Shown here: positions 18,554 through 32,285 of the stretch, piece by piece
How positions within the stretch are numbered: position 1 is the stretch's first letter
Layout of the letters: each line of letters opens with the position of its first letter
Source of the DNA: Haliea sp.
GTDB taxonomy: Bacteria > Pseudomonadota > Gammaproteobacteria > Pseudomonadales > Halieaceae
DNA length: 64,000 nt
Reading direction: 5' to 3'
NCBI GenBank assembly: GCA_041746975.1
Contig: JBGTGB010000058.1
Coordinates: 3,855-67,854 of the forward strand
Program-made: the position numbers and the translations under genes
The notes under the pieces: model-generated
Told to the model about the DNA's origin: nothing
What the model saw: the letters and a program-made list of their open reading frames with translations, nothing else
Databases searched by the model: none

Positions 18554-19218
18554 TCTGCTCCAAGCTCGGCAATTACTTCATCGGTAGTCATCACTCGCGA
18601 CCATAGGCGCTGCAACATGCTCAATGTGGCCTCCTGCATATCTTCACTGTCTGTGCCGGTGCCGTCGCTTACGATGACCACGCTGTACTGGGCATCGCAG
18701 GCCTCCATCGCAGTCATCGCTACGCAGTTATTTGTCGATACTCCCACACACACAACCGATTTGATACCCATCGCCTTCAGATGCGAGTCGAGACCGGTAG
18801 ACCGGAAGGCGCCCTGGGTTGTTTTGTTAACCACCAGATCCTCCGGACTAGGTTTCAGTGCCGCCACAATCTCATGTTCGGGCTGGCCCACAATATTGTT
18901 CGTTGCCTTAACGATGCCGGCAATATGCCTTGGGACGTCACTGGCATCGGGCATATTGGATCCATAGGTTATGTAAATTACCTTGGCGCCGACGGATCTG
19001 ACGCAGTCAGCAAGCCTCGAAATGTTCGGAATCAACACCTGTTCGATACGATCAAATCGATAGTTCGCGTCCTCAAGTGTTCCTTGCTCAGCCAGTATCC
19101 TTCCCAGCCCCATCAGACGGTTGCCGGTAGCGTTCTGCATATCGATTATCAGCAGGGCTGTATCTGCCGCGCTTAGTGAGACGGATTGGCTGAACGAGTC
19201 GACAAAAGTGGGGCGCAT
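18550..19218 (-). CDS. Isochorismatase-family cysteine hydrolase
   Basis: Asp (LLIIDMQN), Lys (VVNKTTQGAF), Cys (GVSTNNCV) triad. Confidence 0.9.
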   Translation of the reverse strand: MRPTFVDSFSQSVSLSAADTALLIIDMQNATGNRLMGLGRILAEQGTLEDANYRFDRIEQVLIPNISRLADCVRSVGAKVIYITYGSNMPDASDVPRHIAGIVKATNNIVGQPEHEIVAALKPSPEDLVVNKTTQGAFRSTGLDSHLKAMGIKSVVCVGVSTNNCVAMTAMEACDAQYSVVIVSDGTGTDSEDMQEATLSMLQRLWSRVMTTDEVIAELGAE

Positions 19219-19270
19219 GTGGAGTATTCCTTGGCCTGGATAGCATTAAAATAAGCGCTAATAAACTTGA

Positions 19271-19284
19271 AATGTTCGGACATT
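19271..19284. promoter_or_regulatory. Operator palindrome AATGTTCGGACATT
   Basis: 12/14 identical to the 14935 site; between the divergent isochorismatase genes. Confidence 0.7.
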
Positions 19285-19339
19285 TTAGATCAAATAGGAG
19301 TTCACGTCATCAACATCATTGTTCCCGGGACTACTGGAT

Positions 19340-19972
19340 ATGGATGAATTTGAAAAAGCAGGCTATGGGCAAAAGCCTATTGGTTATGGTGATCGCCCGG
19401 CTGTATTGATAGTCGATTTTCAAAAAGGTTTTACTGACGCGTCGTACCCGCTGGGCAGGTCCTCACATGTGCAGCGGGCCGTGGACAACACCGCAGTCCT
19501 GGTGGCGGAAGCCCGCCAGCGCGGGATTCCAGTCGCATCCTGCAATGTTGCCTGGCAAAGCGCTGCTGACATGGCCTACTGGAAAATAGCGTCGCTATAT
19601 GACGGCACGTTCTTTCACGGGCATCCTTGCACAGAGTTCGATCCGAGAATTTCCGACCCCGATTACATTTTTCAATTTACCAAAACCGCCCCTTCGATTT
19701 TCTTCCAGACCCCAGTGGTGACATGGCTGACAAAGCACTGCATCGACACCACCATTATCACCGGGTGCACTACATCCGGATGTGTGCGTGCGTCTATCGT
19801 GGACTCTTTCTCCTATGGCTTTCGGACCATCGTTCCTGAAGATTGCTGCGGCGACCAGAACGAAGATGCGCATCGGAGCAACCTGCGAGACGTAGGTCGA
19901 CGCTATGCCGATGTCACTACGCTGGCTGATGTCATTGCTCACTTTGAAACACATTTTCCCAAGGCCAACTGA
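19340..19972 (+). CDS. Isochorismatase-family hydrolase (N-carbamoylsarcosine amidase / maleamate amidohydrolase-like)
   Basis: GYGDRPAVLIVDFQKGFTD, FTKTAPSIFF, GCTTSGCVRAS, DVGRRYADV. Confidence 0.9.
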   Translation: MDEFEKAGYGQKPIGYGDRPAVLIVDFQKGFTDASYPLGRSSHVQRAVDNTAVLVAEARQRGIPVASCNVAWQSAADMAYWKIASLYDGTFFHGHPCTEFDPRISDPDYIFQFTKTAPSIFFQTPVVTWLTKHCIDTTIITGCTTSGCVRASIVDSFSYGFRTIVPEDCCGDQNEDAHRSNLRDVGRRYADVTTLADVIAHFETHFPKAN

Positions 19973-19981
19973 GGATCCACG

Positions 19982-20785
19982 ATGCCAACTGCAACAATTA
20001 ACAACCACACCATGTATTACGAAGTCCATGGCGATGGCCCGCCCGCAGTCTACATCGGGGGTTGGGACACCTTCTGTCACGGCCGGGAGCATTTTCTCGC
20101 GCGCGGCATGACCGACAAGTATTCAGTGCTTTTGGTGGACTATCGTGGCATCGGTGAATCTGATGACGATTTGAGCGTTGCTCCAACCACAGAATTACAT
20201 GCCGACGATATCATCGGCCTGCTGGACCACCTCGGTATGACCAGTGTTTATTTTGTCGGCCTCGTCGGTATCGGTGCCTGTATCGGTCAATGGGTAGCTT
20301 TAAAGCGACCGGATCTGGTGCGCTGTATGGTGAACATGGGTTGCTGGACGTACTCCGACGATTGCATGCGCGATCAGCTCAACGCGTTGGGGGTCATGCA
20401 TGAGAAAGCCGGCTTCCTTGCGTTTCAGGAACTCGTTGCGGTGTATTCATTCCGGCCCGACTATTATATTGCCAACCGACACAAGTTATTGGGCAGCGGG
20501 CGCGTATGGGGAGTGCTTGAGAATAGGTTGACCGCTCATTTACGATTCATTGAGGCCTGTAACAGTCACGACATAAGGCCTCACCTGAAGGATATCGGTG
20601 CCCCGACGCTGGTTATTCATGCGGGGCAGGACGTCATCACTGGGCCTCGCACCACGACCCCTCTGGAAGAAGGTCTGCCCAATGCGGTGGGAGTGACCAT
20701 GGGCGATGTGGCCCATGTGGTCGCGGGCAAGGACGAAAAAATCGCCTTCTGTAAAATCCTCCACGACTTTCTGGACCAGCACTAG
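19982..20785 (+). CDS. Alpha/beta hydrolase fold protein lacking the nucleophile Ser
   Basis: MYYEVHGDGP, DYRGIGESD, PTLVIHAGQD, VAH; elbow reads GLVGIG instead of GxSxG. Confidence 0.85.
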   Translation: MPTATINNHTMYYEVHGDGPPAVYIGGWDTFCHGREHFLARGMTDKYSVLLVDYRGIGESDDDLSVAPTTELHADDIIGLLDHLGMTSVYFVGLVGIGACIGQWVALKRPDLVRCMVNMGCWTYSDDCMRDQLNALGVMHEKAGFLAFQELVAVYSFRPDYYIANRHKLLGSGRVWGVLENRLTAHLRFIEACNSHDIRPHLKDIGAPTLVIHAGQDVITGPRTTTPLEEGLPNAVGVTMGDVAHVVAGKDEKIAFCKILHDFLDQH

Positions 20786-20821
20786 CTTGGGCTGACGGTA
20801 AACCGACGGGCGCACGGCATC

Positions 20822-22006
20822 CTAGATAATCCCGCGTGCCCTTAAATCGTCCAATGCCCCTCCGTGGCCGAGTTCTTCACCTAGCAGCGCATCATTGTCC
20901 TCCCCCAGTCCCCGGCCGGGGGAAATCGCGAGGCGTTCCTGGTCAAGGCGGATTGGATTTCTCAGCACCTGCAGTTCACCGTCGCGATGTGGAATGGTGG
21001 CGCGCATCTTGACCTTATCAACAAAAGGACTATCCAAAGCGGCGGGTAGATCGTAGACCGGCGCCACCGGCACGTAGGTCTGCAATTTTTCCAGCCAATT
21101 CGCTGTGTCATCCCCCTCGAATATCTGATCCAGTATCGGGGTGAGGAGATCTCTGTTTATTGCGCGATCTCGCATGTTCGCAAAGCGTGAGTCCTGAGCC
21201 AATTCAGGATGGCCAATGATATCTACCAGCAATCCCCAGAACTTTTCGGTCATGCACATGACGAATATCCAGCCATCCGCTGTCTTGACCAACTGCACCG
21301 GAGTTTGTGATGGGTGCGAACTGCGCGGCAGGCGTTCAGTGAGAATACCGTGGTTCATATACCAGGTTCCGGGGTAGCTTAACTGGTGTAGTGCCACATC
21401 GAACAAGCTTATATCGACGTCACGCCCGCCCTGGCTAGCCCGTCCTATCAACGCCGCCAGACATCCCATTCCCGCAACAGTGCCGGTCATGAAATCAATC
21501 ATTGACAGCCCAAATCGTGTTGGTGGTGAATCCGGGTCACCCGTAAGCTCGAGAAAACCGCATTCGGACTGCATGAGATAGTCATATCCGGGCCAGTCTG
21601 CGCGATCATTGTCTCTTCCGTAGGCCGAGATATGGGTACAGATGATATCGTCCTTAATAGATTTCAGGCTCGCATAGTCCAGGCCAAGCTTTGCGGGCTG
21701 ATTGCCTCTGAGATTGTTCCAGACCACGTCAGCGGTCTTCACAAGCTCATGGAATAATGCAGTCCCTTCCTGACTTTTCAGGTTCAGAGTGACACTCTTT
21801 TTGTTCAGATTGAATGCCTGGAAGTAGGTACTATCGTCCTCTCCCAGCAAGACCGCACCGGTTTGACGGGCCGGGTCTCCGCCACTTTCGCGGCTTTCTA
21901 TCTTGATCACCTCTGCACCGAGATCAGCCAGATACATGGATCCATAGGGCCCGGCGCCGAATTGTTCGATTGCCAGGACGCGAATGCCCTGCAGTGGTAG
22001 GTTCAT
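20822..22006 (-). CDS. CoA-transferase family III (CaiB/BaiF), third paralog
   Basis: PLQGIRVLAIEQFGAGPYG, LADLGAEVIKIE, NLNKKSVTLNLK, PGYDYLMQ. Confidence 0.92.
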   Translation of the reverse strand: MNLPLQGIRVLAIEQFGAGPYGSMYLADLGAEVIKIESRESGGDPARQTGAVLLGEDDSTYFQAFNLNKKSVTLNLKSQEGTALFHELVKTADVVWNNLRGNQPAKLGLDYASLKSIKDDIICTHISAYGRDNDRADWPGYDYLMQSECGFLELTGDPDSPPTRFGLSMIDFMTGTVAGMGCLAALIGRASQGGRDVDISLFDVALHQLSYPGTWYMNHGILTERLPRSSHPSQTPVQLVKTADGWIFVMCMTEKFWGLLVDIIGHPELAQDSRFANMRDRAINRDLLTPILDQIFEGDDTANWLEKLQTYVPVAPVYDLPAALDSPFVDKVKMRATIPHRDGELQVLRNPIRLDQERLAISPGRGLGEDNDALLGEELGHGGALDDLRARGII

Positions 22007-22102
22007 GAGATGGTCGCTCCTTGAAAGAGACGGTTATTGGCGGTCCTGAGGCTCAATTGCCCACTCTGGCAGCAATGCTTGCATCATCCGGGCAATTATT
22101 GC

Positions 22103-22150
22103 ATTCTACAGTCATAGAAGATTAAGCGTCAAATGTCCGGTCAATTGACG
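22103..22150. promoter_or_regulatory. Back-to-back sigma70 -35 boxes flanking operator AATGTCCGGTCAAT (22132-22145)
   Basis: CGTCAA (22127-22132, TTGACG on minus) with TAGAAT (22103-22108, minus) 18 bp away; TTGACG on plus at 22145-22150. Confidence 0.65.
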
Positions 22151-22191
22151 GTTGGACTTTGGGAATGATAACTGCCAAAGAGAGGTGCAAT

Positions 22192-24249
22192 ATGTCTTAT
22201 CGCCTAGGAGTCGACGTAGGGGGAACGTTTACTGACCTCTTATTGGTTGACGAGGATTCGGGGAAAGTTTTCACCGCAAAAGTGCCCAGCACACCGGATG
22301 ATTCCTCCATTGGTGTGCTCAATGGTATCAAGCGTGTATGCGAAATCGCCAACGTCGATCCCGGCAAGATCTCGCAGGTTATGCACGGCACCACGGTTGC
22401 CACCAACACCATTCTGACCAACACCGGGGCCAAGGTGGGTCTGGTGACGACCAAGGGGTTTCGTCAGGTTCTGCAGATCGCGCGATCCTATGTGCCAGGT
22501 GGCCTGGGCGGCTGGGTCATTTACAACAAGAGCGATGCGCTTGCGCCACTGTCCTGCACAATCGAGGCGGATGAGCGAATGGGTGCAGATGGAAAGGTAG
22601 TTCGCCCCCTCAACAAGAAGGCGTTGAAGCAGTCACTGGAAAGCCTGAAAAAGGAAAATATCGAGGCACTCACAGTATGTCTCATCAACTCCTACGCAAA
22701 CGGCAGCAATGAGAAGGAAGTTGCCAAGATAGCGAAAGAGGTGTTGCCGGGAATTCCCATCTCGATCTCCTACGATGTTGTACCGGAGATGCAAGAGTAC
22801 GAGCGTGCCATAACAACCGTTGCAAACTCCTACGTGCGCCCCCGGGTCTCAAAGTATGTACAGAATCTGCAGCGCAAGCTCAGCAAGGAAATGGGCGGGG
22901 TCAAACTGCATATCCTGCGCTCCGACGGAGGCATGGCTTCAGCGAAGGTGGCCGAGTCACTACCTGTGAACCTGCTGATGAGCGGTCCTGCGGGCGGCGT
23001 TGCCGGTGCGGTCTGGGTAGCGAAGCAGGCCGGATTCAAGGACCTGCTAACCTTCGACATGGGGGGCACGTCCACCGATGTCGCGCTGGTTCAGGACGGC
23101 AAAGCGCAATTGCGTCGAGAAACCACCGTTGGTGACGTTACAGTCCGTGCATCTTCCGTGGACGTTCGAACTGTGGGTGCAGGGGGTGGCTCAATCGCTC
23201 ACGTGCCGGAGCTGACCGGCGCGCTTCGTGTCGGGCCAGAAAGTGCTGGCGCTGAACCGGGTCCTGCTGCCTATAACAAGGGCGGTACCCTGCCAACGGT
23301 GACCGATGCGAACGTAGTACTGGGTTACCTGCCAACAGAGGTGCGGCTTGGGGGTGACATGGAGATTCGCAAGGATCTCGCCGAGGACGCGATTCGGCCC
23401 ATTGCCAAGGCTCTGGGAATTTCCATCAAGCGTGCCGCCGCCGGCATCGTCGATATCGTCAATGAAAATATGTATGGCGCCCTGCGTCTGGTTTCGGTTG
23501 AGCAGGGCTATGACCCCCGCGAATTCGCTCTTATTGGCTTTGGTGGCGCGGGTCCCCTGCATGCCAACGCACTCGGGAAACTGATGAATAGCTGGCCGGT
23601 TATTGTCCCGCCAGGCCCGGGTGTATTGTGTGCGTATGGAGACGCCACGACACGGGTGCGCGATGAAGCTTCCCGCACCTTCATTCGTCGATTCAGTCAG
23701 ACAACCGCCGCTCAGGTAGCTCAGATGTTCGAGAAGCTGGCAGCGCAAGCGGAAAAAACGATCGAGAAGGAAGGAGTGCCGGAAAACGAGCGCAGCCTTA
23801 CCTACCAGGCAGATATTCGTTACCACGGACAGGGGCTGCTATTGACTGTAGACTTTGAATTGGATGCACTACGGTCACAAGGTCTGGACGTCATCGGTGA
23901 CCAGTTTGAAGAGATGCACAAGCAGCTGTTCACCTTCGCTCTTGAGAGCGACAAGGAAATTGTGAACCTGCGCGCGGTTGCGCAGGGGCGCTCCGCAGAT
24001 ATTGAACCTCAAAAGGTGGCTCAGGGGTCCCGCACACCGAACAAGGCGTCCATTATCGGTAAGTCCAGTGTTTACATGGACCACAAGGATCTGCAGGCCA
24101 CTCTGTACAAACGGTCAGAGCTGCGCGCTGGTAACGAAATCCCCGGGCCAGCTGTCTTGTTGGAAATGGATTCGACCACAGTTATTTTGCCAGGGCATAT
24201 CGGCAAGGTAGATACTTTCGGAAATATTCTGATTACGCCACAAGCGTAA
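22192..24249 (+). CDS. Hydantoinase A / 5-oxoprolinase family, ATP-binding subunit
   Basis: GVDVGGTFTD, HGTTVATN, SGPAGGVAG, DMGGTSTD, VGAGGGSIA, FGGAGPLHA. Confidence 0.95.
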   Translation: MSYRLGVDVGGTFTDLLLVDEDSGKVFTAKVPSTPDDSSIGVLNGIKRVCEIANVDPGKISQVMHGTTVATNTILTNTGAKVGLVTTKGFRQVLQIARSYVPGGLGGWVIYNKSDALAPLSCTIEADERMGADGKVVRPLNKKALKQSLESLKKENIEALTVCLINSYANGSNEKEVAKIAKEVLPGIPISISYDVVPEMQEYERAITTVANSYVRPRVSKYVQNLQRKLSKEMGGVKLHILRSDGGMASAKVAESLPVNLLMSGPAGGVAGAVWVAKQAGFKDLLTFDMGGTSTDVALVQDGKAQLRRETTVGDVTVRASSVDVRTVGAGGGSIAHVPELTGALRVGPESAGAEPGPAAYNKGGTLPTVTDANVVLGYLPTEVRLGGDMEIRKDLAEDAIRPIAKALGISIKRAAAGIVDIVNENMYGALRLVSVEQGYDPREFALIGFGGAGPLHANALGKLMNSWPVIVPPGPGVLCAYGDATTRVRDEASRTFIRRFSQTTAAQVAQMFEKLAAQAEKTIEKEGVPENERSLTYQADIRYHGQGLLLTVDFELDALRSQGLDVIGDQFEEMHKQLFTFALESDKEIVNLRAVAQGRSADIEPQKVAQGSRTPNKASIIGKSSVYMDHKDLQATLYKRSELRAGNEIPGPAVLLEMDSTTVILPGHIGKVDTFGNILITPQA

Positions 24250-24268
24250 CTGACGAGGAGCAGAGCAC

Positions 24269-26233
24269 ATGCCAGCAACCATCGTTGAGACCAATACTAC
24301 CAAGTTCAAGCATAAGGACATCGATCCCATTACGCTCGACATCATCGAAAATGCGATGATGAACGCGAGATACGAGATGGATACGGTGCTGTTCAGAACC
24401 GCCATGTCTCCTGGTATACGGGAGCAGCATGACGAATTTCCCATGATTGCGAACCGCGACGGCAAGATGGTCGTCGGCCAGTTCGGAAGCTTCATCCATG
24501 GTTTCAAAGAGGCTTACGACGGCACCATAGAGGAGGGTGATCTTTTCCTGACTACAGACCCCTACTCCTGCAACGGCGCCATCAGTCACGTAAACGATTG
24601 GTTGCTGCTGCGGCCGATCTTCAAGAACGGGCGCCTGATTGCCTATGCGGCGATGTTTGGTCATATGACCGACGTCGGTGGCAAGGTGCCTGGAAGCTTG
24701 CCGACCGATGCCCGTGAGATTTTTGAGGAGGGTATTCGCATACCGCCTACCAAGATATTCAGGAACGATGAATTGCAGGAAGACCTGCTCAACCTGATAT
24801 TGCACAACTGCCGCTTGCCTCACTGGAACCGAAGCGACTTCAATGCACTAGTCGCGGCTATCAGGACGGCGGAAAAGCGGGTAATCGAAATTGCCAATCG
24901 GTTCGGAGATGACCATTTCTACTCTGCCCTGGACGAATTGCTTGAACGCAACAAGCTGGCCATGTCGAAGCTCATCAAAAGAACTGTGTCCACCAAGAAG
25001 ATGGTCTTTGAGGACTACATCTGTGACGACGGCCTGGGTATGGGGCCGTATAAGATCAAGTGTGCAATGTGGCGTGAGGGTGACAAGGTCATTTTCGACT
25101 TTGCAGGTACCGATCCGCAGTCGATCAGCTCTATCAACTTCCTGCTGAACGAAGAAATGTTCAAAATGTTTTGCGGTGTGTACATGATCATGATTTTTGA
25201 TCCGCAAATCATGTTCAACGATGGCTTCTATGACCTAATGGAGGTCAGAATTCCTTTCGGCACGCTGCTGAAACCGAAGCAGCCCGCGGCACTTTCATGT
25301 CGCACTCACGCCCTGGGCCGTATTTTTGACGTGCTCGCCGGACTTCTCGGTCAGGGCAGCCCAGACCTTCTTGCAGGAGCCGGCTTCTCCGATAGTCCGC
25401 ACTTCATGTATTCGGGCTACGACAAGAATGGCGACTGGTACCAGCTCTACTCAATCGGCTTTGGGGGCATACCCGGCAAGCCGACAGGGGACGGCCCCGA
25501 CGGACATTCGCTTTGGCCCAGTTTTACCAACGTCCCCAATGAGTTTCTGGAGAGTTACTTCCCGTTACGCATAGAACTCTATGAGACCATACCTGATAGT
25601 GGAGGCCCAGGACTGCATCGAGGCGGCAACGGGTTGCGTATGGCATACTGCTTCCTCGAGCCCGGCACAATTTCAGTGCACGATGATCGCTGGCTGACCT
25701 ATCCCTGGGGTGTGAATGGCGGTCTTCCGGGCCGTAGGTCCGAGAAACTATTGCACCGAACAGACGGCACCATAGAAAAACTTCCTTCCAAATGCGATCT
25801 GATCGAAGTGAACGCCGGTGATATTCTGCACTTCAATACCTGGGGTGGCGGTGGCTGTGGCGATCCGTTCAAGCGCCCTGCCGAGCGCGTTGCATTTGAC
25901 GTCAAGGCCGGTCTGGTTACGCGCAAGGGAGCGGAGCGTTACGGCGTTGTCCTTGAGGATGATTTGTCCGTTAACGAAAAGAAAACTGCCAGTTTGCGGG
26001 AAAAATTGTCCAAAGCTCGAGGCAAGCCCCCTGTCTTTGATCGTGGAGGCACCATCGACGAACTCAAGGCCCGCTGCTTTAAGGAGACCGGGCTGCAGCC
26101 ACCGCGTCAGCCGGAGTTTCAAACCTGGGCCACCAAGCTGGTTGATCTGGCACCCAAGAAGGCCAAGAAAGCCAAGCAGGCGAAAGCCGTCACAGGCAAG
26201 TCGGCCGCGAAGCGCAAAAATAAAGTAGCGTGA
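24269..26233 (+). CDS. Hydantoinase B / 5-oxoprolinase family subunit
   Basis: DPITLDIIEN, TAMSPGIRE, GHMTDVGGKVPGS, EEGIRIPP, DSGGPGLHRGGNG, TWGGGGCGDP; Lys/Ala-rich C-terminal tail. Confidence 0.95.
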   Translation: MPATIVETNTTKFKHKDIDPITLDIIENAMMNARYEMDTVLFRTAMSPGIREQHDEFPMIANRDGKMVVGQFGSFIHGFKEAYDGTIEEGDLFLTTDPYSCNGAISHVNDWLLLRPIFKNGRLIAYAAMFGHMTDVGGKVPGSLPTDAREIFEEGIRIPPTKIFRNDELQEDLLNLILHNCRLPHWNRSDFNALVAAIRTAEKRVIEIANRFGDDHFYSALDELLERNKLAMSKLIKRTVSTKKMVFEDYICDDGLGMGPYKIKCAMWREGDKVIFDFAGTDPQSISSINFLLNEEMFKMFCGVYMIMIFDPQIMFNDGFYDLMEVRIPFGTLLKPKQPAALSCRTHALGRIFDVLAGLLGQGSPDLLAGAGFSDSPHFMYSGYDKNGDWYQLYSIGFGGIPGKPTGDGPDGHSLWPSFTNVPNEFLESYFPLRIELYETIPDSGGPGLHRGGNGLRMAYCFLEPGTISVHDDRWLTYPWGVNGGLPGRRSEKLLHRTDGTIEKLPSKCDLIEVNAGDILHFNTWGGGGCGDPFKRPAERVAFDVKAGLVTRKGAERYGVVLEDDLSVNEKKTASLREKLSKARGKPPVFDRGGTIDELKARCFKETGLQPPRQPEFQTWATKLVDLAPKKAKKAKQAKAVTGKSAAKRKNKVA

Positions 26234-26250
26234 TACGGCAGTACTGAGGT

Positions 26251-26277
26251 GGGGCGCCTGTTGGCGCCCCTTTTTTT
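26251..26277 (+). terminator. Intrinsic terminator
   Basis: GGGGCGCC-TGTT-GGCGCCCC followed by T7. Confidence 0.85.
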
Positions 26278-27160
26278 ATTGCGGGAATTTCCTGGCTAGC
26301 GCGAGAATACGCTGAGCCTTGTATACCACCGGGTAATCAATGAAATAGCCATCAAGTTGAATGGATACAGAGCCACTGTTTTCAGCCGCCTCAAACGCCG
26401 CGACAATAGCTTCCGCGTGCGCAATCTCCTCAGCACTCGGGGTAAATACTTCATTACAGAGTGGCACCTGACTGGGGTGAATGCAAAGCTTGCCAGCGAA
26501 GCCGAATCTTTTGCCGCGAGCAGCCGAGGCGCGGAATCTTTCATCATCCCTTATTTGCAATACGACGGTGTCAATAGGTGGATCAATATTCGCCATTCGA
26601 GTGGCATGGCTAATGCGCGCTCTAGCGTAGTTCAGTACCTCTTCGTCTTCGCTCCAGATGTAGTCCAGGTCCAGGGTATAATCACCGCCGCCAAAAGACA
26701 GGCGTTTTACTCTGGAAACGGCACTGGCGATCTCAGTCGCGCACTCTACACCGCGAGCAGTCTCGATAATTGGCATCAGGTCAATGCCGCCGGGTGCCAT
26801 CCCGGCTTTACGCTCAGCAGTACTGATAAGCTCGTCAATTGCCAGCAGGCTAGCTGCGGATTCCACTTTGGGAATAACGATGCCATCAAGCCACGGCCCG
26901 ACCACCGCCCTTATGTCTTCCTCGCAGTACCCGGTTTCCAGAGAATTCACGCGGATGTAGCCCAGACAGCTCCGCGGGTTCTGCATCGCTGCTGTGACAC
27001 CGGCGCGAGTGGCAACTTTTTCGGCTACCGGGACCGCGTCTTCAAGGTCAAGTATGACGGCATCGGCCGAGGCGCCAAAGACCTTTTCGACTTTTCGCGG
27101 GTGGTTGCCGGGCGTGAACAAAAAGCTTCTGATTGTTCTGATGTCAGCAGCTGTATTCAT
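26276..27160 (-). CDS. CitE-like acyl-CoA lyase (HpcH/HpaI aldolase-citrate lyase family)
   Basis: RSFLFTPGN, ADAVILDLEDAV, IPKVES, IETARG, FGGGDY, GKLCIHPSQ, IDYPVV. Confidence 0.93.
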   Translation of the reverse strand: MNTAADIRTIRSFLFTPGNHPRKVEKVFGASADAVILDLEDAVPVAEKVATRAGVTAAMQNPRSCLGYIRVNSLETGYCEEDIRAVVGPWLDGIVIPKVESAASLLAIDELISTAERKAGMAPGGIDLMPIIETARGVECATEIASAVSRVKRLSFGGGDYTLDLDYIWSEDEEVLNYARARISHATRMANIDPPIDTVVLQIRDDERFRASAARGKRFGFAGKLCIHPSQVPLCNEVFTPSAEEIAHAEAIVAAFEAAENSGSVSIQLDGYFIDYPVVYKAQRILALARKFPQ

Positions 27161-27162
27161 GC

Positions 27163-27942
27163 TCAACCCCACGTCCAGCCATCAGCGGACTGCCAGCCGC
27201 GAGTGAATTCGAAGGAGTAATTGAAATTGGCCGCAGCATGTTCTGACAAAGAGGCTTCGAATATTCGGCCATTCTTGCCGAAATATCGACGGCACACTTT
27301 CAGGGACGCGGAACCTGGTTCAACATTCAGAAATCCGGCGACTCGCTCACTCAGAATGCTTGCATATATTTCGACTTGTATCTTTTGCACCTCTTCACCG
27401 TAGGAATCGGCGATAAGCCGATAAACGGGGGTAGACGTTGCGCCGATTTTGTCAATAACGCCGGCATACTCAGGCAGAATGTAGACATTCACCCAACAAA
27501 TGGGTAGCGCCGTCTCTACGAATGTTCGAAGACCTGAGACGCAGCTCCAGTGACTGCTGGTAGGACACTTGAGCTCGCGGGCCAGTGCCCTGTTCAGTTT
27601 GACGTCTTCGAATCGGTCGATGACGCGTAGCCGGCTGTCCTCGGGGTAGCTGAAAAGTTCGGAGGGCTCCTTCACCAACTGGGCGTAAGACGCCTGAGTT
27701 TCGCTGGCCACAATGATTGTGCCTATTCCCTGGCGGCGCTCGATCAGTCGCACTTCTTCAAGTACCCGAAGCGCGCCGCGAATAGTGTGGCGGCTGACGC
27801 GGTAGGTCTTCATCAGATCGAGTTCGCCCGGCATGCGCGTCCCAACGGCGAATTTTCCGCTGCGGATCGCGCCTAGAAGTTCTTCGGCGATGACTTTGTA
27901 ACGGGGACTTTTCCCGACATCGCTACCGGCAACGTTCAACAT
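27163..27942 (-). CDS. GntR family regulator, HutC/UTRA subfamily
   Basis: wHTH GTRMPGELDLMKTYRVSRHTIRGAL...RRQGIGT; C-terminal UTRA-like domain. Confidence 0.9.
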   Translation of the reverse strand: MLNVAGSDVGKSPRYKVIAEELLGAIRSGKFAVGTRMPGELDLMKTYRVSRHTIRGALRVLEEVRLIERRQGIGTIIVASETQASYAQLVKEPSELFSYPEDSRLRVIDRFEDVKLNRALARELKCPTSSHWSCVSGLRTFVETALPICWVNVYILPEYAGVIDKIGATSTPVYRLIADSYGEEVQKIQVEIYASILSERVAGFLNVEPGSASLKVCRRYFGKNGRIFEASLSEHAAANFNYSFEFTRGWQSADGWTWG

Positions 27943-27973
27943 GCTTGCATCCCAACCAACTTAATTGGATACT

Positions 27974-27987
27974 ATTGTCCGTACATT
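27974..27987. promoter_or_regulatory. Operator palindrome ATTGTCCGTACATT
   Basis: 12/14 identical to the 14935 site; between the divergent gntR and maoC starts. Confidence 0.7.
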
Positions 27988-28018
27988 TGGGGCCACAATC
28001 AAGCGTGAGGAGGAAATA

Positions 28019-28543
28019 ATGGGTGTGAGACAGGACGAGCAGCTTGGGCCGAATCGCTACCGTAGGGCAAGCGGTCGCTTGTATGAAGACTTCACGGTAG
28101 GAGATGTATACGAACACCACCCCGGGCGTACGGTAACTCAGCATGATAATGCGTGGTTTACCCTGTTGACCATGAACACCCATCCCCTGCATTTTGACGA
28201 GGAGTATGCCAAGGGAACCGAATTCGGAAAACCATTGATCTGCAGCCCGCTGACCGTCGCCATTCTGGTCGGAATGAGCGTCTCCGACGTGAGTGAAAAG
28301 GCCATTGCCAACCTCGGCTGGAAAGAAATCGCGCTGGTGGCACCGGTTTTCCCCGGCGATACCCTGTATGCCGAGTCGGAGGTTCTTGGCAAGCGTGAGT
28401 CCAAGTCACGGCCGAATGCTGGCGTGGTCACCGTAAAAACGACGGGTCGCAATCAGGACGGTAAACCAGTGTGTGTGTTCGAGCGCTCCATGCTGGTGCC
28501 TAAGCGCTCTGACGTGAACGTAACGACGGGGGCCATTTCATGA
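28019..28543 (+). CDS. MaoC-family hot-dog hydratase/dehydratase (RipB/itaconyl-CoA hydratase-like)
   Basis: LYEDFTVGDVYEH, WFTLLTMNTHPLHFD, IANLGW, PVFPGDTLYAESEVL; GGAGG RBS before ATG 28019. Confidence 0.88.
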   Translation: MGVRQDEQLGPNRYRRASGRLYEDFTVGDVYEHHPGRTVTQHDNAWFTLLTMNTHPLHFDEEYAKGTEFGKPLICSPLTVAILVGMSVSDVSEKAIANLGWKEIALVAPVFPGDTLYAESEVLGKRESKSRPNAGVVTVKTTGRNQDGKPVCVFERSMLVPKRSDVNVTTGAIS

Positions 28544-29712
28544 AAAACACCGATTTTAACACCCAGGAATACGCGGAACTGGAAGCGCAGATTCTGGATA
28601 CTATCGATCGTTGGGTAGAGAAGGACGTCAGGCCCATAGCGAGGCATTTTGATCAGGCGGACGAGTACCCTGTCGAGCTGGTCGAGCAAATGAAAGAACT
28701 GGGCTTGTTTGGCGCGACTATATCACAGGAATATGGCGGCCTGGGTTTGAGTGCAACCACCTATGCACGTATCGTATCCAGAATATGTGAAGTGTGGATG
28801 GCGCCTACAGGCGTGTTCAATTCTCATTTGATCATGGCGAGTTGCGTTCAGCGTGCGGGCACCGCAGAGCAGAAAGAGCGATTCCTGCCGCGGTTCGCCA
28901 CCGGCGAGCTGAGAGGTGGAGTTGGCCTGACCGAACCTGATGCCGGGACCGATCTTCAGGGGATTAGAACCGTTGCGCGGCGGGACGGCGACGACTACGT
29001 CATCAATGGCACCAAGACCTGGATCACCAACGGCATCAAGGGCAATTGCCTGGCCGTCTTGACCAAAACCGACCCTACCGTTTCCCCTGCTCACAAAGGT
29101 ATGAGCCTGTTTTTGTGCGAAAAGGGTGACGGCTTCACAGTAGGCAAAAAGCTGAAGAAGTTGGGCTACCGGGCGATCGACAGCGCTGAGCTGATCTTCC
29201 AGGACTTTCGCGTCAGCAAGGATAACTTGATTGGTGGAGAGGAGGGTCGTGGCTTTGTGCAGGTGGCCGGCGGGCTTGAGTTGGGCAGGATTAATATCGC
29301 TGCGAGAGGTGCCGGCATGGCCGCGGGCGCAACCAAACTGTCCCTCGCCTATGCCAAGGACCGCAAGACTTTCGGCAAGGCGATCGTTGAGCATCAGGCT
29401 ATTCAGCTGAAACTTGCCGAAATGTCTACTCGTTCCGAGGCAGCCAGATTGTTGGTTGAACAAGCTGCGCGCAAGTACGATCAGGATGAACGTTGTGATC
29501 TGGAGGCGGGCCAGGCCAAGTTTTTTGCCTCCGAAGCGGCAGTGCAGAACAGCCTCGATGGCATGCGGGTATTCGGTGGCTACAGCTATTCGACCGAGTA
29601 TGAAATCGAGCGATTCTACCGGGACGCCCCGCTTCTCTGTATCGGCGAGGGTACCAACGAAATCCAGCGGATCATTATCGCCAAGCAGATGGTGGCGAGA
29701 TCAGGCGGTTAG
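28540..29712 (+). CDS. Acyl-CoA dehydrogenase
   Basis: LTEPDAGTDL, NGTKTWITNG, LELGRINIA, RKTFGKAI, GGYSYSTEY, IGEGTNEIQR. Confidence 0.95.
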   Translation: MKNTDFNTQEYAELEAQILDTIDRWVEKDVRPIARHFDQADEYPVELVEQMKELGLFGATISQEYGGLGLSATTYARIVSRICEVWMAPTGVFNSHLIMASCVQRAGTAEQKERFLPRFATGELRGGVGLTEPDAGTDLQGIRTVARRDGDDYVINGTKTWITNGIKGNCLAVLTKTDPTVSPAHKGMSLFLCEKGDGFTVGKKLKKLGYRAIDSAELIFQDFRVSKDNLIGGEEGRGFVQVAGGLELGRINIAARGAGMAAGATKLSLAYAKDRKTFGKAIVEHQAIQLKLAEMSTRSEAARLLVEQAARKYDQDERCDLEAGQAKFFASEAAVQNSLDGMRVFGGYSYSTEYEIERFYRDAPLLCIGEGTNEIQRIIIAKQMVARSGG

Positions 29713-29734
29713 GTGAGCCCCCGGTCCTGAACCT

Positions 29735-30406
29735 TTACTTCGAGAGGAAAGTGGTGAACTCATCCACCTCCAACCTGGGCGTCCGATACTGGTTCACCGG
29801 TGCGCCTGGATCCGCATAACCCAGGGACATCGCTGAGACGAACATCTGTTCCGGTGGTGCGCCGATCAGGCCCATCACCGTATCGTGATACTTGAGAAAG
29901 GCCGCCTGAGCACAGGTCTCAAGACCAAAGCCGCGCGCCGAGAGCATTATCGACTGGATAAAGATTCCGTAGTCTATCCAGCTGCCCAGCTCAAGGTCGC
30001 GGTCGATGGTGAACAACAGGGCGACGGGCGCATCGAAGAATTGGTAATTTCTTCGATGTTGGCGCGACATGGCCTGTTTATCGTCCTTTTCGATACCCAA
30101 GTGGCCATACAGTCCCCAGCCGGTGTTGCGGCGGCGGCCGATGTAGGGTTCTCGCCATGCGACCGGATAGTAGTTGTATTCCTGCTCGCCGGCATCGCCT
30201 TGATCGTGTCGGAGGCAGCAGGCATCGACAATTTGCTGGCGTTTTTCGCCGCTGGCGACCCACACCCGCCAGGGTTGAATATTGGATCCAGAGGCGGCTC
30301 GACCGGCCGTGCGGAGAATTTCTTCGATGATCTTCTGGGGAACCGGCCTGTCTTTTCTGAACGCGCGTATGGATTGGCGCCCGTTGATTGCTTCATTTAC
30401 GTCCAT
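29735..30406 (-). CDS. Nitroreductase family protein
   Basis: RQSIRAF, AASGSNIQPW, FFDAPV, MLSARGFGLETCAQ, MSLGYAD. Confidence 0.9.
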   Translation of the reverse strand: MDVNEAINGRQSIRAFRKDRPVPQKIIEEILRTAGRAASGSNIQPWRVWVASGEKRQQIVDACCLRHDQGDAGEQEYNYYPVAWREPYIGRRRNTGWGLYGHLGIEKDDKQAMSRQHRRNYQFFDAPVALLFTIDRDLELGSWIDYGIFIQSIMLSARGFGLETCAQAAFLKYHDTVMGLIGAPPEQMFVSAMSLGYADPGAPVNQYRTPRLEVDEFTTFLSK

Positions 30407-30557
30407 ATCCTGCTGCGCCCCACGCCTTGAGCTTGCATGCTGTCCCTCCATCCAAAAGCCAGCATAGCACCTAACCCCGGCGGGGTATTGCTCCCGCAGG
30501 GTGGCTCTGCGAAGTTGAGGCCTCCGTGCTGCGGCACGCAGGTAATGGAGAAGCGTG

Positions 30558-32285
30558 ATGGCGCCCCGATCTTTCCTCTTTCCCGTTTGGCATCATTGCC
30601 TGCTGGTCAGCGTTGTTTTACTTCTGGCTCCTGTCCTGGCGGCTCAACCGGCGGAGCAGCTGCTTCACAACGCCCGCATTTACACCCAGGACCCCGAGCA
30701 GCCCTGGGCGGACACCATCGCCATTGCCGGCGACACGATTGTGTATGTAGGCGATTACGCAGGTGCCAAGCCTCATCTCGCCGCTACCACCCGGCAGACC
30801 GATCTAGGCGGCAAGCTGGTGCTGCCAGGCTTTATCGACACCCACATGCATGTAGCCGGCACCATCCCCTATGTGTTTGCCGCATCTCTGGGTCCGGATA
30901 TGAGCCCGGATGAGCTGGTAGCCGCGATTGCCGAGCACGCGGCGGCGTATCCAGAGCAAAACCCGGTGATCGGCAGCGGCTTTCTCGGTGCTGTTTTCGA
31001 TGAGCAGGGGCCTACCGCGGCGGACCTGGACCGGGCTGTACCGGACCGGCCGGCGATGATTTTTGACGAGGGGTTCCATTCAGCCTGGATTAACAGCAAG
31101 GCTATGGAATTGGTCGGGCTCAGCGCCGACAGCCCCGATCCGGTGCCCGGCGTGCACTATTACAAGCGTTACCCCGATGGCACGCCAACGGGCTGGCTGA
31201 TAGAAGGTGCTGCCTTCAATTGGGTCAGCGAAAAGCTGGGTGTAACCACTGAAGCCAGCCTGGAAGCCGGTGCGGACCAGTTTTTGGGCACCATGTCTGC
31301 CATGGGGATTACCGCCGCCTTTGACGCCGGGCTGTTCGATGGTGGTGAGAAAACCCTGAACCTGTTTGAAAAGTTGGTTGCCGAGCAGCGGTTACCACTG
31401 CGCGTGGTCGGCTCCCTGTACGTCAACACACCGGCCAAGCTGGCTGCTGCGCCCGCAGACCTTGCCCGTATGCAGCAGCGTTTTCATTCCGAGTTCTTCG
31501 ACGTGCGCACGCTGAAAATTTCTCTCGACGGTACAGTGGAAGCTCAAACCGCGTTTATGCTGGAGCCCTACGTGAAACCCGCGGGCCACGAGGCACCGCC
31601 GCTGGTGCCCGCCGCTGACGCCTTGGCCGCGGTTGCCCGCGCCTCCGCCGACAATATCGATCTCCATCTCCACGCGCTGGGAGACGGCGCCGTCCGCCTT
31701 GCCCTGGATGCGGTGGAGGCGGCGCGGAAAGCTCATCCTGAGACTGACTCTCGTTTTACCGTGTGCCACTTGCAGGTCGTTAACCCCGCGGATATCGCTC
31801 GCTTTGGGGAGTTGGAGGTTATCGCACAGTCCACGCCGACCTGGTACGTGTATGACGAGATAGCGCTGGAGTTTCTCGGCGAGGAGCGTCTGCAGCAGCA
31901 CTATCCGCTGCGTTCAATCGCTGCCGGCGGCGCTCGTATTACCCTTGGCAGTGACTACCCAGCCAGCTGGATAGGCCTGGATGGCCTCAATCCATTGTTC
32001 AATATCGAGATGGCGATGACCCGACGCCCAGCCGGGGATCGGGACTTTGTGCCGCAGCCTCCGGCCAGTGAGGTCATCACCCTTGAGCAGGCCATTCGTG
32101 GCTACACCCTTGATGCCGCCTGGCAGCTGCGTTTAGAGGACCAGATCGGTTCCCTGCAGGTGGGCAAGCAGGCAGATCTGGTAGTACTCAGCGACAACCT
32201 GTTCGAGATGGATCCTTACGCCATTCACACTGCCCGCGTGCTTACCACGATCGTCGATGGCAAGACTGTGTTCAACGCGGAATAG
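30558..32285 (+). CDS. Amidohydrolase family 3 (YtcJ-like), exported
   Basis: Signal peptide; PGFIDTHMH, LKISLDG, HALGD, VCHLQ, LGSDYP, GSLQVGKQADLVVL. Confidence 0.9.
   Translation: MAPRSFLFPVWHHCLLVSVVLLLAPVLAAQPAEQLLHNARIYTQDPEQPWADTIAIAGDTIVYVGDYAGAKPHLAATTRQTDLGGKLVLPGFIDTHMHVAGTIPYVFAASLGPDMSPDELVAAIAEHAAAYPEQNPVIGSGFLGAVFDEQGPTAADLDRAVPDRPAMIFDEGFHSAWINSKAMELVGLSADSPDPVPGVHYYKRYPDGTPTGWLIEGAAFNWVSEKLGVTTEASLEAGADQFLGTMSAMGITAAFDAGLFDGGEKTLNLFEKLVAEQRLPLRVVGSLYVNTPAKLAAAPADLARMQQRFHSEFFDVRTLKISLDGTVEAQTAFMLEPYVKPAGHEAPPLVPAADALAAVARASADNIDLHLHALGDGAVRLALDAVEAARKAHPETDSRFTVCHLQVVNPADIARFGELEVIAQSTPTWYVYDEIALEFLGEERLQQHYPLRSIAAGGARITLGSDYPASWIGLDGLNPLFNIEMAMTRRPAGDRDFVPQPPASEVITLEQAIRGYTLDAAWQLRLEDQIGSLQVGKQADLVVLSDNLFEMDPYAIHTARVLTTIVDGKTVFNAE

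Follow-up and report, generated by a model that had tools for sequence, protein, structure and literature searches.

A Halieaceae regulon that probably joins a hydantoinase-type ring opener to a coenzyme A module of the itaconate/methylsuccinate type

In this study, a stretch of 64,000 nucleotides from Haliea sp. (contig JBGTGB010000058.1 of assembly GCA_041746975.1; hereafter the window) was investigated around a hydantoinase/oxoprolinase gene pair, hyuA and hyuB, and the coenzyme A (CoA) genes lying beside it. We consider it highly probable that the hydantoinase pair and the CoA genes are joined in one pathway, because they share an operator, because their linkage outlasts rearrangements, and because lyase partners accompany the pair in other phyla and in archaea; the coupling put forward by the original prediction is strongly supported on these grounds. 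More tentatively, and with confidence that falls somewhat short of even for the scheme in full, the region of about 14.9-29.7 kb is read as one catabolic regulon for a small nitrogen heterocycle, in which a cyclic imide would be opened with adenosine triphosphate (ATP), freed of its nitrogen and cleaved as a CoA ester. The enzyme families are known ones, found here in an undescribed, deeply conserved combination.

Common operator and extent of the regulon

All seven genes that the original prediction had named between 20822 and 29712 were found to be present and intact, as judged from the open reading frame (ORF) list and from Pfam and NCBIfam scans. None of the cluster proteins reaches an NCBIfam equivalog cutoff, so that the names in the following list hold at family level only.

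15026-17614, plus strand: TonB-dependent outer-membrane receptor, 862 amino acids (Pfam Plug and TonB_dep_Rec)
17624-18553, minus strand: EamA/DMT-family inner-membrane transporter (Pfam EamA), co-transcribed downstream of the isochorismatase 2 gene
18550-19218, minus strand: isochorismatase-family cysteine hydrolase 2 (Pfam), triad Asp26-Lys132-Cys165 read from the sequence
19319-19972, plus strand: isochorismatase-family cysteine hydrolase 1 (Pfam), triad Asp33-Lys122-Cys155 read from the sequence; the ATG at 19340 is a possible alternative start
19982-20785, plus strand: alpha/beta-hydrolase-fold protein (Pfam and NCBIfam)
20822-22006, minus strand: family III CoA-transferase, Ict-like (Pfam CoA_transf_3, 347 bits)
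22192-24249, plus strand: HyuA, ATP-binding subunit (Pfam Hydant_A_N, Hydantoinase_A and Hydant_A_C); the ATG at 22192 is preceded by a ribosome-binding site, and the listed ORF opens at TTG 22159
24269-26233, plus strand: HyuB, metal-dependent hydrolytic subunit (Pfam Hydantoinase_B, 475 bits)
26276-27172, minus strand: CitE/HpcH-like beta-hydroxyacyl-CoA lyase (Pfam HpcH_HpaI)
27163-27942, minus strand: GntR/HutC-type regulator (Pfam; GntR helix-turn-helix and UTRA domains)
28019-28543, plus strand: MaoC-fold (R)-specific enoyl-CoA hydratase, RipB/Ich-like (NCBIfam RipB_Ich as best family)
28540-29712, plus strand: acyl-CoA dehydrogenase (Pfam, three ACAD domains)

Alignment of the intergenic regions with those of the closest relatives brought out the 14-bp palindrome AATGTNCGNNCAWT (AATGT-N4-ACATT), which, with at most one mismatch allowed, occurs nine times in the window where 0.45 matches would be expected; this number was not reached in any of 100 shuffles. 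The operator copies of the cluster, to which no strand is assigned, are the following.

14935-14948: AATGTACGTACATT, a perfect palindrome, 78 bp upstream of the TonB receptor gene
19271-19284: AATGTTCGGACATT, in the promoter region from which the two isochorismatase-family genes diverge
22132-22145: AATGTCCGGTCAAT, between the CoA-transferase gene and hyuA, 47 bp upstream of hyuA
27974-27987: ATTGTCCGTACATT (reverse complement AATGTACGGACAAT), halfway from gntR to maoC, at a distance of 32 bp from the start of gntR

A further operator-like site with one mismatch lies inside gntR (27260-27273), 88 bp upstream of citE. It can be observed that an operator occupies every divergent promoter of the cluster, and that the same intergenic positions are occupied in about 25 Halieaceae/Luminiphilus loci. 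The sequence at 22132-22145 is identical in more than 20 Halieaceae loci, and several Luminiphilus/Halieaceae loci also have a copy in the slot that separates a CoA-transferase gene from the receptor gene, while the motif was not found in the loci of the second gammaproteobacterial architecture described below. The single common operator of the original prediction is thereby borne out and reaches further than the range first assigned to it. From the operator positions at 19271 and 14935, which lie beyond that range, the regulon therefore comprises the receptor, isochorismatase 2 with the EamA transporter, isochorismatase 1 with the alpha/beta-fold protein, and the seven genes named earlier. 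The gene set of 20822-29712 stands, but the cysteine hydrolases that would remove the nitrogen are outside it.

The GntR/HutC-type protein is probably the repressor of this regulon, acting through the AATGT-N4-ACATT operators. It carries an N-terminal GntR helix-turn-helix and a C-terminal UTRA domain, its own promoter holds a palindromic GT-Nx-AC as is the pattern of GntR/HutC regulators, and its orthologues co-occur with the operator in L003, L004 and L083 (L001-L098 being our labels for related loci). In the promoter and terminator scan the total number of sites was not above chance, and only positional coincidences were used, namely two terminators and two promoter-like sites touched by operators. 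The operator at 19271-19284 overlaps a minus-strand -10-like hexamer, and that at 22132-22145 abuts the -35 of the best promoter-like site for the CoA-transferase gene. A strong bidirectional terminator (17625-17657) follows the receptor gene and another terminator (26251-26270) follows hyuB, both between convergent units. Two other candidates were rejected: the exact 11-mer ATGCTTGCATC, which stands in both divergent promoters (22075-22085 and 27941-27951) and was considered as an operator, has no copy in the orthologous regions of L003 and L004 or in any other locus, and a sigma-54 promoter at 22069-22085 has a spacing that is one base off. The 10-mer core of ATGCTTGCATC has one further copy inside gntR (27356-27365).

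Linkage of the two modules in Gammaproteobacteria

The closest relatives of the window, among the matches listed, are Halioglobus and other Halieaceae metagenome-assembled genomes, and all sequencing runs containing the window are metagenomes, with the labels hot spring, lake and sediment. HyuB-type matches were detected in at least 555 stretches of a one-genome-per-species collection. Very many HyuB relatives have 74-96% identity across gammaproteobacterial families, and in the 80 loci labelled by tblastn two architectures were recognised.

The Halieaceae core consists of isochorismatase 2-EamA, isochorismatase 1-alpha/beta-fold protein, the CoA-transferase and hyuAB, with the receptor and its preceding CoA-transferase genes a few kb off. 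The groups gntR-(citE)-prpD and maoC-acyl-CoA dehydrogenase adjoin this core in the window (where prpD is missing, see below), L003, L004, L083, L088, L090 and L091, that is, in every contig that is long enough; L089 ends at a contig edge, so that the linkage is cut there. The gene order differs among the linked Halieaceae loci and yet the linkage stays, as would be expected of selection on co-location rather than descent of one arrangement. A gene of the MmgE/PrpD family (family level) is found in L003, L083 and L088-L090, and more than 12 Halieaceae loci have one at their edge. In the Luminiphilus-type loci a close RutA paralogue directly follows hyuB (L086 12030-13091, L087 12092-13150; 378 bits against a cutoff of 498), and an HpaB-like protein after prpD (L086 709-2271) and a TauD-family dioxygenase (L084 2356-3213) also occur. 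No RutA-like, HpaB-like or TauD-family oxygenase was found in the window.

The second architecture, of Woeseiaceae, Chromatiales and Steroidobacteraceae, has another CoA-transferase (30% identical to that of the window), a gene resembling 3-hydroxy-3-methylglutaryl-CoA (HMG-CoA) lyase fused upstream of hyuAB, and a protein of 290 amino acids, often together with an isochorismatase and an IclR regulator. This conserved protein of 275-300 amino acids stands beside hyuAB in L001 (4524-5426), L002 (4163-5023) and about 36 further loci, and it has no Pfam match at E up to 1 and no PDB match at E up to 10. It seems to replace the isochorismatase in some loci, and its N-terminus is suspected to be glyoxalase/VOC-like, as a candidate only. 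Separately, a class I S-adenosylmethionine-dependent methyltransferase (about 380-410 amino acids) overlaps or abuts (by at most 4 bp) an ORF of about 120 amino acids a few kb from hyuAB in a gammaproteobacterial genome, in Luminiphilus contigs and on the Sphingomonas plasmid pJE1 (L002 2516-4011; L086 14727-16252; L087 13165-14684; L092 4095-5683). The small ORF has no Pfam match and is annotated as a hypothetical protein on pJE1.

It may be asked whether two unrelated functions simply lie side by side, a plain 5-oxoprolinase feeding glutamate and an ordinary itaconate/methylsuccinate cluster, since each half resembles a known self-sufficient system (PMC12290011) and catabolic islands often gather unrelated genes. 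However, the halves have a conserved operator in common, their linkage survives rearrangement in Halieaceae and recurs in archaea and four other lineages, where the lyases and CoA-transferases are not orthologous, and HyuB proteins that are 74-96% identical across gammaproteobacterial families always keep their partners. We therefore regard this explanation as extremely unlikely.

Orthologues in other phyla and archaea

HyuB orthologues, with 45-96% identity overall, are distributed across Gamma- and Alphaproteobacteria, Geobacillus, Rubrobacter and haloarchaea. In the tblastn search of plasmids the orthologues have 45-65% identity, and matches below about 40% belong to other subfamilies. The following arrangements were read.

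Acidiphilium multivorum plasmid: leuCD-like genes, ..., gntR, HMG-CoA lyase; divergent CoA-transferase-hyuA-hyuB-isochorismatase
Novosphingobium capsulatum: TonB receptor; gntR-HMG-CoA lyase-hyuA-hyuB-CoA-transferase-"N-carbamoylsarcosine amidohydrolase" (NCBI annotation)
Geobacillus sp. Y412MC52: isochorismatase-hyuA-hyuB-CoA-transferase-HMG-CoA lyase; leuC and leuD nearby
Rubrobacter indicoceani: gntR-CoA-transferase-hyuA-hyuB-isochorismatase; no HMG-CoA-lyase-like gene
Three haloarchaeal plasmids (L096 7905-13499, L097 5911-11489, L098 5941-11572): hyuA-hyuB-isochorismatase-isocitrate-lyase/phosphoenolpyruvate-mutase family protein

The bacterial plasmids and the second gammaproteobacterial architecture have orthologous CoA-transferases (57-72% identity), lyases (40-54%) and isochorismatases (41-55%). 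The haloarchaeal operons adjoin a helix-turn-helix regulator gene and have no CoA-transferase, forming a CoA-free version of the module, and their lyase is best matched by the PrpB (methylisocitrate lyase) model, with 230 bits where the cutoff is 354. In nearly all HyuB contexts read, an isochorismatase-type amidase and a lyase for 2-alkylmalate-type acids adjoin; the Sphingomonas plasmid pJE1 is the only plasmid context without amidase and lyase, and carries MmgE/PrpD, oxidoreductases and a succinate-semialdehyde dehydrogenase. Characterised relatives of these lyases act on acids of the 2-hydroxy-2-alkyl-succinate type or on the CoA esters of such acids, for example citramalyl-CoA, HMG-CoA, methylisocitrate and dimethylmalate, and yield pyruvate or glyoxylate together with a short acid or acyl-CoA. 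As judged from family membership, the constant features across lineages would be an ATP-dependent ring opener, a cysteine-hydrolase amidase and a carbon-carbon lyase. Three mutually non-homologous back ends (HMG-CoA-lyase-like, CitE with MaoC, and PrpB-like) are found behind one and the same front end, which amounts to convergence. HyuAB, the amidase and the lyase make up the deeply conserved part, to which the Halieaceae add a TonB receptor, several CoA-transferases and the methylsuccinate genes.

The hydantoinase pair

HyuA harbours all three ATP motifs of the ASKHA type (DxGGTxxD, DxGGT and GxxPGP, as defined in PMC8453981), in the form of DVGGTFTD at residue 8, DMGGT at 289 and GAEPGP at 353. 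In HyuB the metal tetrad Asp55-His107-Asp110-His132 is invariant in 20 orthologues, and the spacings from His to Asp (3 residues) and from Asp to His (22 residues) match those of the caprolactamase subunit CapB, in which alanine at Asp41, His99, Asp101 or His124 abolishes activity (PMC8453981). Among solved structures, the fused N-methylhydantoinase 7HK5 is the top match of both parts, with 465 bits for HyuA and 215 bits for HyuB; the caprolactamase follows with 388 (CapA) and 195 bits (CapB), and the caprolactamase equivalogs are not reached (539 and 212 bits against cutoffs of 1000, NCBIfam).

The pair belongs to the same superfamily as acetone and acetophenone carboxylases, and one could suppose that it acts after the lyase and carboxylates a ketone derived from a beta-hydroxyacyl-CoA, a notion to which the 230-280 bits of HyuA to carboxylase subunits and the fusion of HMG-CoA-lyase-like genes to hyuAB in many loci lend something. 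Against this, HyuB has 57 bits to acetone carboxylase alpha and 122 to acetophenone carboxylase versus 195-215 to the hydrolases, its core of about 575 amino acids falls below the 680-780 of carboxylases and in the length class of hydrolases (PMC5214803), and the small subunit is missing, since neither the window nor the related loci read have a gamma-subunit gene beside hyuAB. A carboxylase would also leave the constant isochorismatase partner without a role, and this function is considered scarcely probable. HyuAB is treated here as an ATP-dependent ring-opening amidohydrolase, assigned at family level, because its closest relatives are hydrolases, its core has their length and no gamma-subunit gene accompanies it. 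By analogy with the haloarchaeal version, which has no CoA-transferase, HyuAB would not need a CoA ester as its substrate. Apart from the catalytic core, HyuB ends in a low-complexity tail rich in Lys and Ala (…APKKAKKAKQAKAVTGKSAAKRKNKVA; 26126-26230, residues about 620-654), and its orthologues vary in length from 612 to 690 amino acids, mostly in this C-terminal tail.

Cysteine hydrolases and the nature of the ring

Both isochorismatase-family proteins keep the Asp-Lys-Cys triad. Isochorismatase 1 is nearest in the PDB to N-carbamoylsarcosine amidohydrolase (26ST, 122 bits) and to maleamate amidases (4L07, 112 bits; 3OT4/3UAO, 105 bits), and is proposed to be a half-amide or carbamoyl amidase. 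Isochorismatase 2 has cysteine hydrolases, biuret hydrolase and RutB as PDB neighbours, and scores 74 bits with each of the biuret amidohydrolase and RutB models, below cutoff. Taken together with the RutA-like gene of the sister loci, the relatives of the two proteins indicate that the ring nitrogen would sit between two carbonyls, as in an imide or a ureide, and not in a plain lactam. A plain lactam does not fit because its opening yields an amino acid and the regulon has no aminotransferase, none having been detected there in the Pfam domain scans. Of the route from a cyclic amide to a substituted succinate in the original prediction, the ring opening is retained, the plain lactam is not, and the predicted substrate is refined to an imide or ureide.

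A lactam can still be accommodated if it is a simple carboxylated one, opened to an amino-diacid that is activated with CoA and loses its nitrogen later, for example through ammonia elimination from a beta-aminoacyl-CoA by the MaoC-fold protein. Hot-dog-fold ammonia lyases for aminoacyl-CoA esters exist, and HyuAB is hardly more distant from caprolactamase than from N-methylhydantoinase. In the indoleacetate pathway, moreover, a predicted hydantoinase-type lactamase is followed by CoA chemistry on a substituted succinate (PMC5214803, PMC8360864). On the other hand, such a route leaves unexplained the two intact cysteine-hydrolase amidases under the same operator and the near-universal isochorismatase neighbour in other phyla; the MaoC protein is nearest to Ich and mesaconyl-CoA hydratases, and the haloarchaeal module works without any CoA-transferase. 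We find this version very unlikely.

The cyclic ureides are a more serious alternative. In this case a substituted hydantoin or dihydropyrimidine would be opened by an N-methylhydantoinase-like HyuAB, isochorismatase 1 would have the role of N-carbamoylsarcosine amidase and isochorismatase 2 that of RutB or biuret hydrolase, with carbon dioxide and ammonia released and the skeleton passed to the CoA module. The closest solved structures (N-methylhydantoinase and N-carbamoylsarcosine amidohydrolase), the biuret hydrolase and RutB kinship of isochorismatase 2, the RutA-like monooxygenase (378 bits) after hyuB in the sister loci and the NCBI label of the Novosphingobium neighbour as N-carbamoylsarcosine amidohydrolase all speak for it. 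Decarbamoylation, however, yields an amine and not a diacid, and the regulon holds no deaminase, aminotransferase, sarcosine oxidase or creatinine deaminase; the conserved partner lyases for 2-hydroxy-2-alkyl diacids are not obviously fed by a hydantoin route, and every family score concerned is below its equivalog cutoff. A ureide is accordingly judged unlikely, and the imide is preferred in what follows.

The TonB receptor has a 39%-identical counterpart adjoining the hyuAB operon of Novosphingobium capsulatum, and the EamA transporter, which is kept in the Halieaceae loci, scores 76 bits with the carboxylate/amino acid/amine transporter model TIGR00950, below cutoff. In the alpha/beta-fold protein, GLVG[IM]GAC is invariant at the position of the nucleophile elbow in 25 aligned orthologues, and the usual Asp and His positions seem to be kept; the protein may be non-hydrolytic (decarboxylase- or lyase-like) or may use the Cys of this stretch.

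The CoA module

The itaconate/methylsuccinate cluster, with the gene list ich, mcd, mmgE, ict and ccl, encodes Ict, Ich, Ccl, methylsuccinyl-CoA dehydrogenase and the MmgE/PrpD methylsuccinate isomerase (PMC12290011). At family level the CoA part of the Halieaceae loci matches this cluster in composition, so that the itaconate/methylsuccinate type originally ascribed to the CoA genes agrees with what was found. The MaoC protein has RipB_Ich as its best family (218 bits against a cutoff of 340, E 6.5e-65), below the Ich equivalog, and its nearest structures are mesaconyl-CoA hydratases, with 137 bits to beta-methylmalyl-CoA dehydratase 8HGN. The CoA-transferase scores 213 bits with the succinate-glutarate CoA-transferase model and 185 with the succinyl-CoA:mesaconate model, both below cutoff. 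The CitE-like lyase scores 215 bits with citE and 163 with RipC_Ccl, both below cutoff (375 for the Ccl equivalog). The acyl-CoA dehydrogenase is nearest to FadE3 (4IV6, 430 bits); its gene overlaps maoC by 4 bp, and the combination of a CoA-transferase with an adjacent acyl-CoA dehydrogenase is found at domain level only.

Some copies of the dehydrogenase gene are broken in related loci: it is split or internally deleted in two long-read assemblies (L004 14823-15642 and 15673-16343; L090 10555-11681), while the nitroreductase gene is split in L004 and many genes are broken in L091. The broken dehydrogenase copies may be assembly errors or real decay, and the dehydrogenase step may be dispensable in some lineages.

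Proposed pathway

In the proposed scheme, the compound would enter through the TonB receptor and the EamA transporter, and the amide bond of the ring would be opened by HyuAB at the expense of ATP, probably by phosphorylation in HyuA and hydrolysis at the metal site of HyuB, an order that follows the proposal for caprolactamase. The ring would most likely have five members and be the cyclic imide of a C4 dicarboxylic acid with a methyl branch (methylsuccinimide or methylmaleimide type). One of the isochorismatase-family cysteine hydrolases would then deamidate the half-amide and free ammonia. The resulting diacid (methylsuccinate, citraconate or mesaconate type) would be activated by the family III CoA-transferase, and a saturated methylsuccinyl-type ester would be oxidised by the acyl-CoA dehydrogenase; in the relatives with MmgE/PrpD, this protein would handle the other methylsuccinate stereoisomer. 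The MaoC hydratase would form a citramalyl-CoA-type ester, which the CitE-like lyase would split into acetyl-CoA and pyruvate. We infer the order of steps, the imide ring and the methyl-branched skeleton from the sequences; the branched C4-diacid skeleton in particular is suggested by the kinship of the MaoC protein, the gene set and the lyase partners across lineages.

Several observations weigh against this scheme. The solved structures nearest to HyuAB and isochorismatase 1, being the two enzymes of the N-methylhydantoin route, would favour a ureide as much as an imide; residues specific for imides are not known in the HyuAB family, and the known cyclic-imide route uses an ATP-independent imidase, so that a need for ATP is puzzling. 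Many Chromatiales-type loci lack an isochorismatase and carry the protein of about 290 amino acids instead. The CoA enzymes all stay below the equivalog cutoffs, the CitE-like lyase has CitE, malyl-CoA lyase and the "acyl-CoA lyase beta chain" (8KHL/9NZB in the PDB) at roughly the same distance, and an MmgE/PrpD gene is absent from the window though present in relatives. The alpha/beta-fold protein (19982-20785) lacks the GXSXG nucleophile elbow and has no assigned step, and that the GntR protein is the partner binding the operator is likewise something we infer.

Various other substrates were considered and rejected, namely biotin, carnitine/gamma-butyrobetaine, dimethylsulfoniopropionate/gonyol, citrate-type siderophores, nicotinate, the thiamine pyrimidine, ectoine and the alpha-ketoglutaramate lactam, because required enzymes are missing or conserved partners would stay unexplained. 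The carriers are abundant, coastal bloom-associated Halieaceae/Luminiphilus and sediment Woeseiaceae, so that the substrate is probably common in marine organic nitrogen. One concrete idea, which we hold to be quite unlikely, is that bacteria and haloarchaea use the module to assimilate maleimides derived from tetrapyrroles, namely methylmaleimide, methyl-ethyl-maleimide, methyl-vinyl-maleimide and hematinic acid. These maleimides are listed as breakdown products of chlorophyll and haem in leaves and sediments (PMC7318184), and the origin of environmental methylsuccinate was unclear until recently (PMC12290011). If the idea were true, the last step of the mineralisation of tetrapyrroles (chlorophyll, bacteriochlorophyll, haem and bilins) would be closed and a natural source of methylsuccinate and citraconate would be provided.

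If the general model holds, the route would join ATP-driven ring opening to a branched C5-dicarboxylate pathway, the widespread annotation "hydantoinase/oxoprolinase family protein" would gain a function, and a natural source of methylsuccinate-type acids would be indicated. The haloarchaeal hyuA-hyuB-isochorismatase-PrpB-like operon would represent a compact, CoA-free minimal system.

Island composition and neighbouring genes

The block 15026-30451 has a guanine-plus-cytosine (GC) content of 0.548 against 0.613-0.619 in its flanks, which suggests that the regulon and the nitroreductase gene form a compositional island acquired as a block, the donor being possibly a lower-GC, Luminiphilus-like organism. 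Two neighbours are of uncertain membership.

29735-30451, minus strand: nitroreductase-family flavoprotein (Pfam), in the low-GC island
11540-14894, plus strand: CoA-transferase, HMG-CoA-lyase and CoA-transferase genes (Pfam), directly before the operator and the receptor gene

No operator motif was found upstream of the nitroreductase gene, which is convergent with the dehydrogenase gene and syntenic in L003 and L004 only; its product might reduce an unsaturated ring as an ene-reductase, or have no part in the pathway. In the upstream group the lyase passes the cutoff of 246 bits of the HMG-CoA lyase subfamily model, with 305 bits. A different palindrome, ATTTCATATTGAAAT, lies upstream of these genes at 11345-11359, and they may be under another regulator and possibly form a second diacid branch; CoA-transferase genes also precede the receptor in Luminiphilus loci.

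Comparison with known systems

The statement of the original prediction that no described pathway joins the two modules agrees with full-text literature searches, in which no paper was found to join a hydantoinase/oxoprolinase with HMG-CoA lyase, CoA-transferase, isochorismatase, itaconate enzymes or imidase in one pathway. The nearest known systems each share a part of the module.

In the creatinine/N-methylhydantoin route an ATP-dependent N-methylhydantoinase is followed by N-carbamoylsarcosine amidase (PDB 7HK5, 26ST and 1NBA). Like the proposed Halieaceae system, this route combines an ATP-dependent opener with a hydrolase of the isochorismatase fold by which the group bearing the nitrogen is removed, and its two enzymes are the closest solved relatives of the proteins described here. 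Unlike that route, no creatinine deaminase or sarcosine enzyme stands with an operator in the window (an amidohydrolase gene at 30555-32285 lies outside the low-GC island), and the CoA-transferases and carbon-carbon lyases are not used there.

The Rut pathway (RutA, RutB, RutD, RutE) and the lower nicotinate pathway (NicD, NicF) employ an isochorismatase-fold amidase with an alpha/beta-fold protein on ring-opened unsaturated amides. The same pairing of enzymes is seen here, with a RutA-like gene in the sister loci and a nitroreductase-family gene in the window. In contrast to these pathways, ring opening would be carried out by HyuAB and not by an oxygenase, equivalents of RutC, RutF and RutG are absent, and the alpha/beta-fold protein lacks the serine nucleophile; the Rut equivalogs are not reached (RutB 74 bits against 378, RutD 70 against 239), and there is no RutA in the window.

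The cyclic-imide route of Blastobacter sp. consists of an ATP-independent imidase and an amidase-signature half-amidase acting on unsubstituted succinimide or maleimide, with no dedicated CoA module. It follows the same logic of imide to half-amide to dicarboxylate, but its enzymes are not homologous to the proteins described here.

The five-gene itaconate/methylsuccinate cluster of Pseudomonas aeruginosa and Cupriavidus necator consists of the same families, with the acyl-CoA dehydrogenase gene beside the hydratase gene as in the window and with MmgE/PrpD as in L003, L083, L088 and L090 (PMC12290011), and pyruvate and acetyl-CoA are the predicted end products here too. It differs in having no hydantoinase, whereas the Halieaceae genes form divergent operons with a HutC-type regulator, embedded HyuAB, two cysteine hydrolases, the alpha/beta-fold protein, the EamA transporter and the TonB receptor; the window, for its part, has no MmgE/PrpD, and its Ich- and Ccl-like proteins are below the equivalog cutoffs.

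Caprolactamase CapAB and valerolactamase OplBA (PMC8453981, PMC11033972) share with HyuAB the two subunits, the ATP motifs and the metal tetrad, so that HyuAB presumably works by their mechanism, in which the lactim is phosphorylated and then hydrolysed. Their pathways continue with an aminotransferase and a dehydrogenase on an omega-amino acid, whereas amidases and CoA-dependent cleavage would follow here.

In the anaerobic indoleacetate (iaa) pathway of Aromatoleum, the ring is opened by a predicted enzyme of the hydantoinase type, after which a family III CoA-transferase and an acyl-CoA dehydrogenase work on a substituted succinate (PMC5214803, PMC8360864), much as is proposed for the regulon. 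Its lactamase is predicted to act on a CoA ester, and a B12 mutase, a decarboxylating dehydrogenase and an aromatic CoA ester come next; the corresponding genes are absent here. With its phenylsuccinate, the indoleacetate pathway is a partial precedent, and the only described one found, for a hydantoinase-type opener joined to CoA chemistry.

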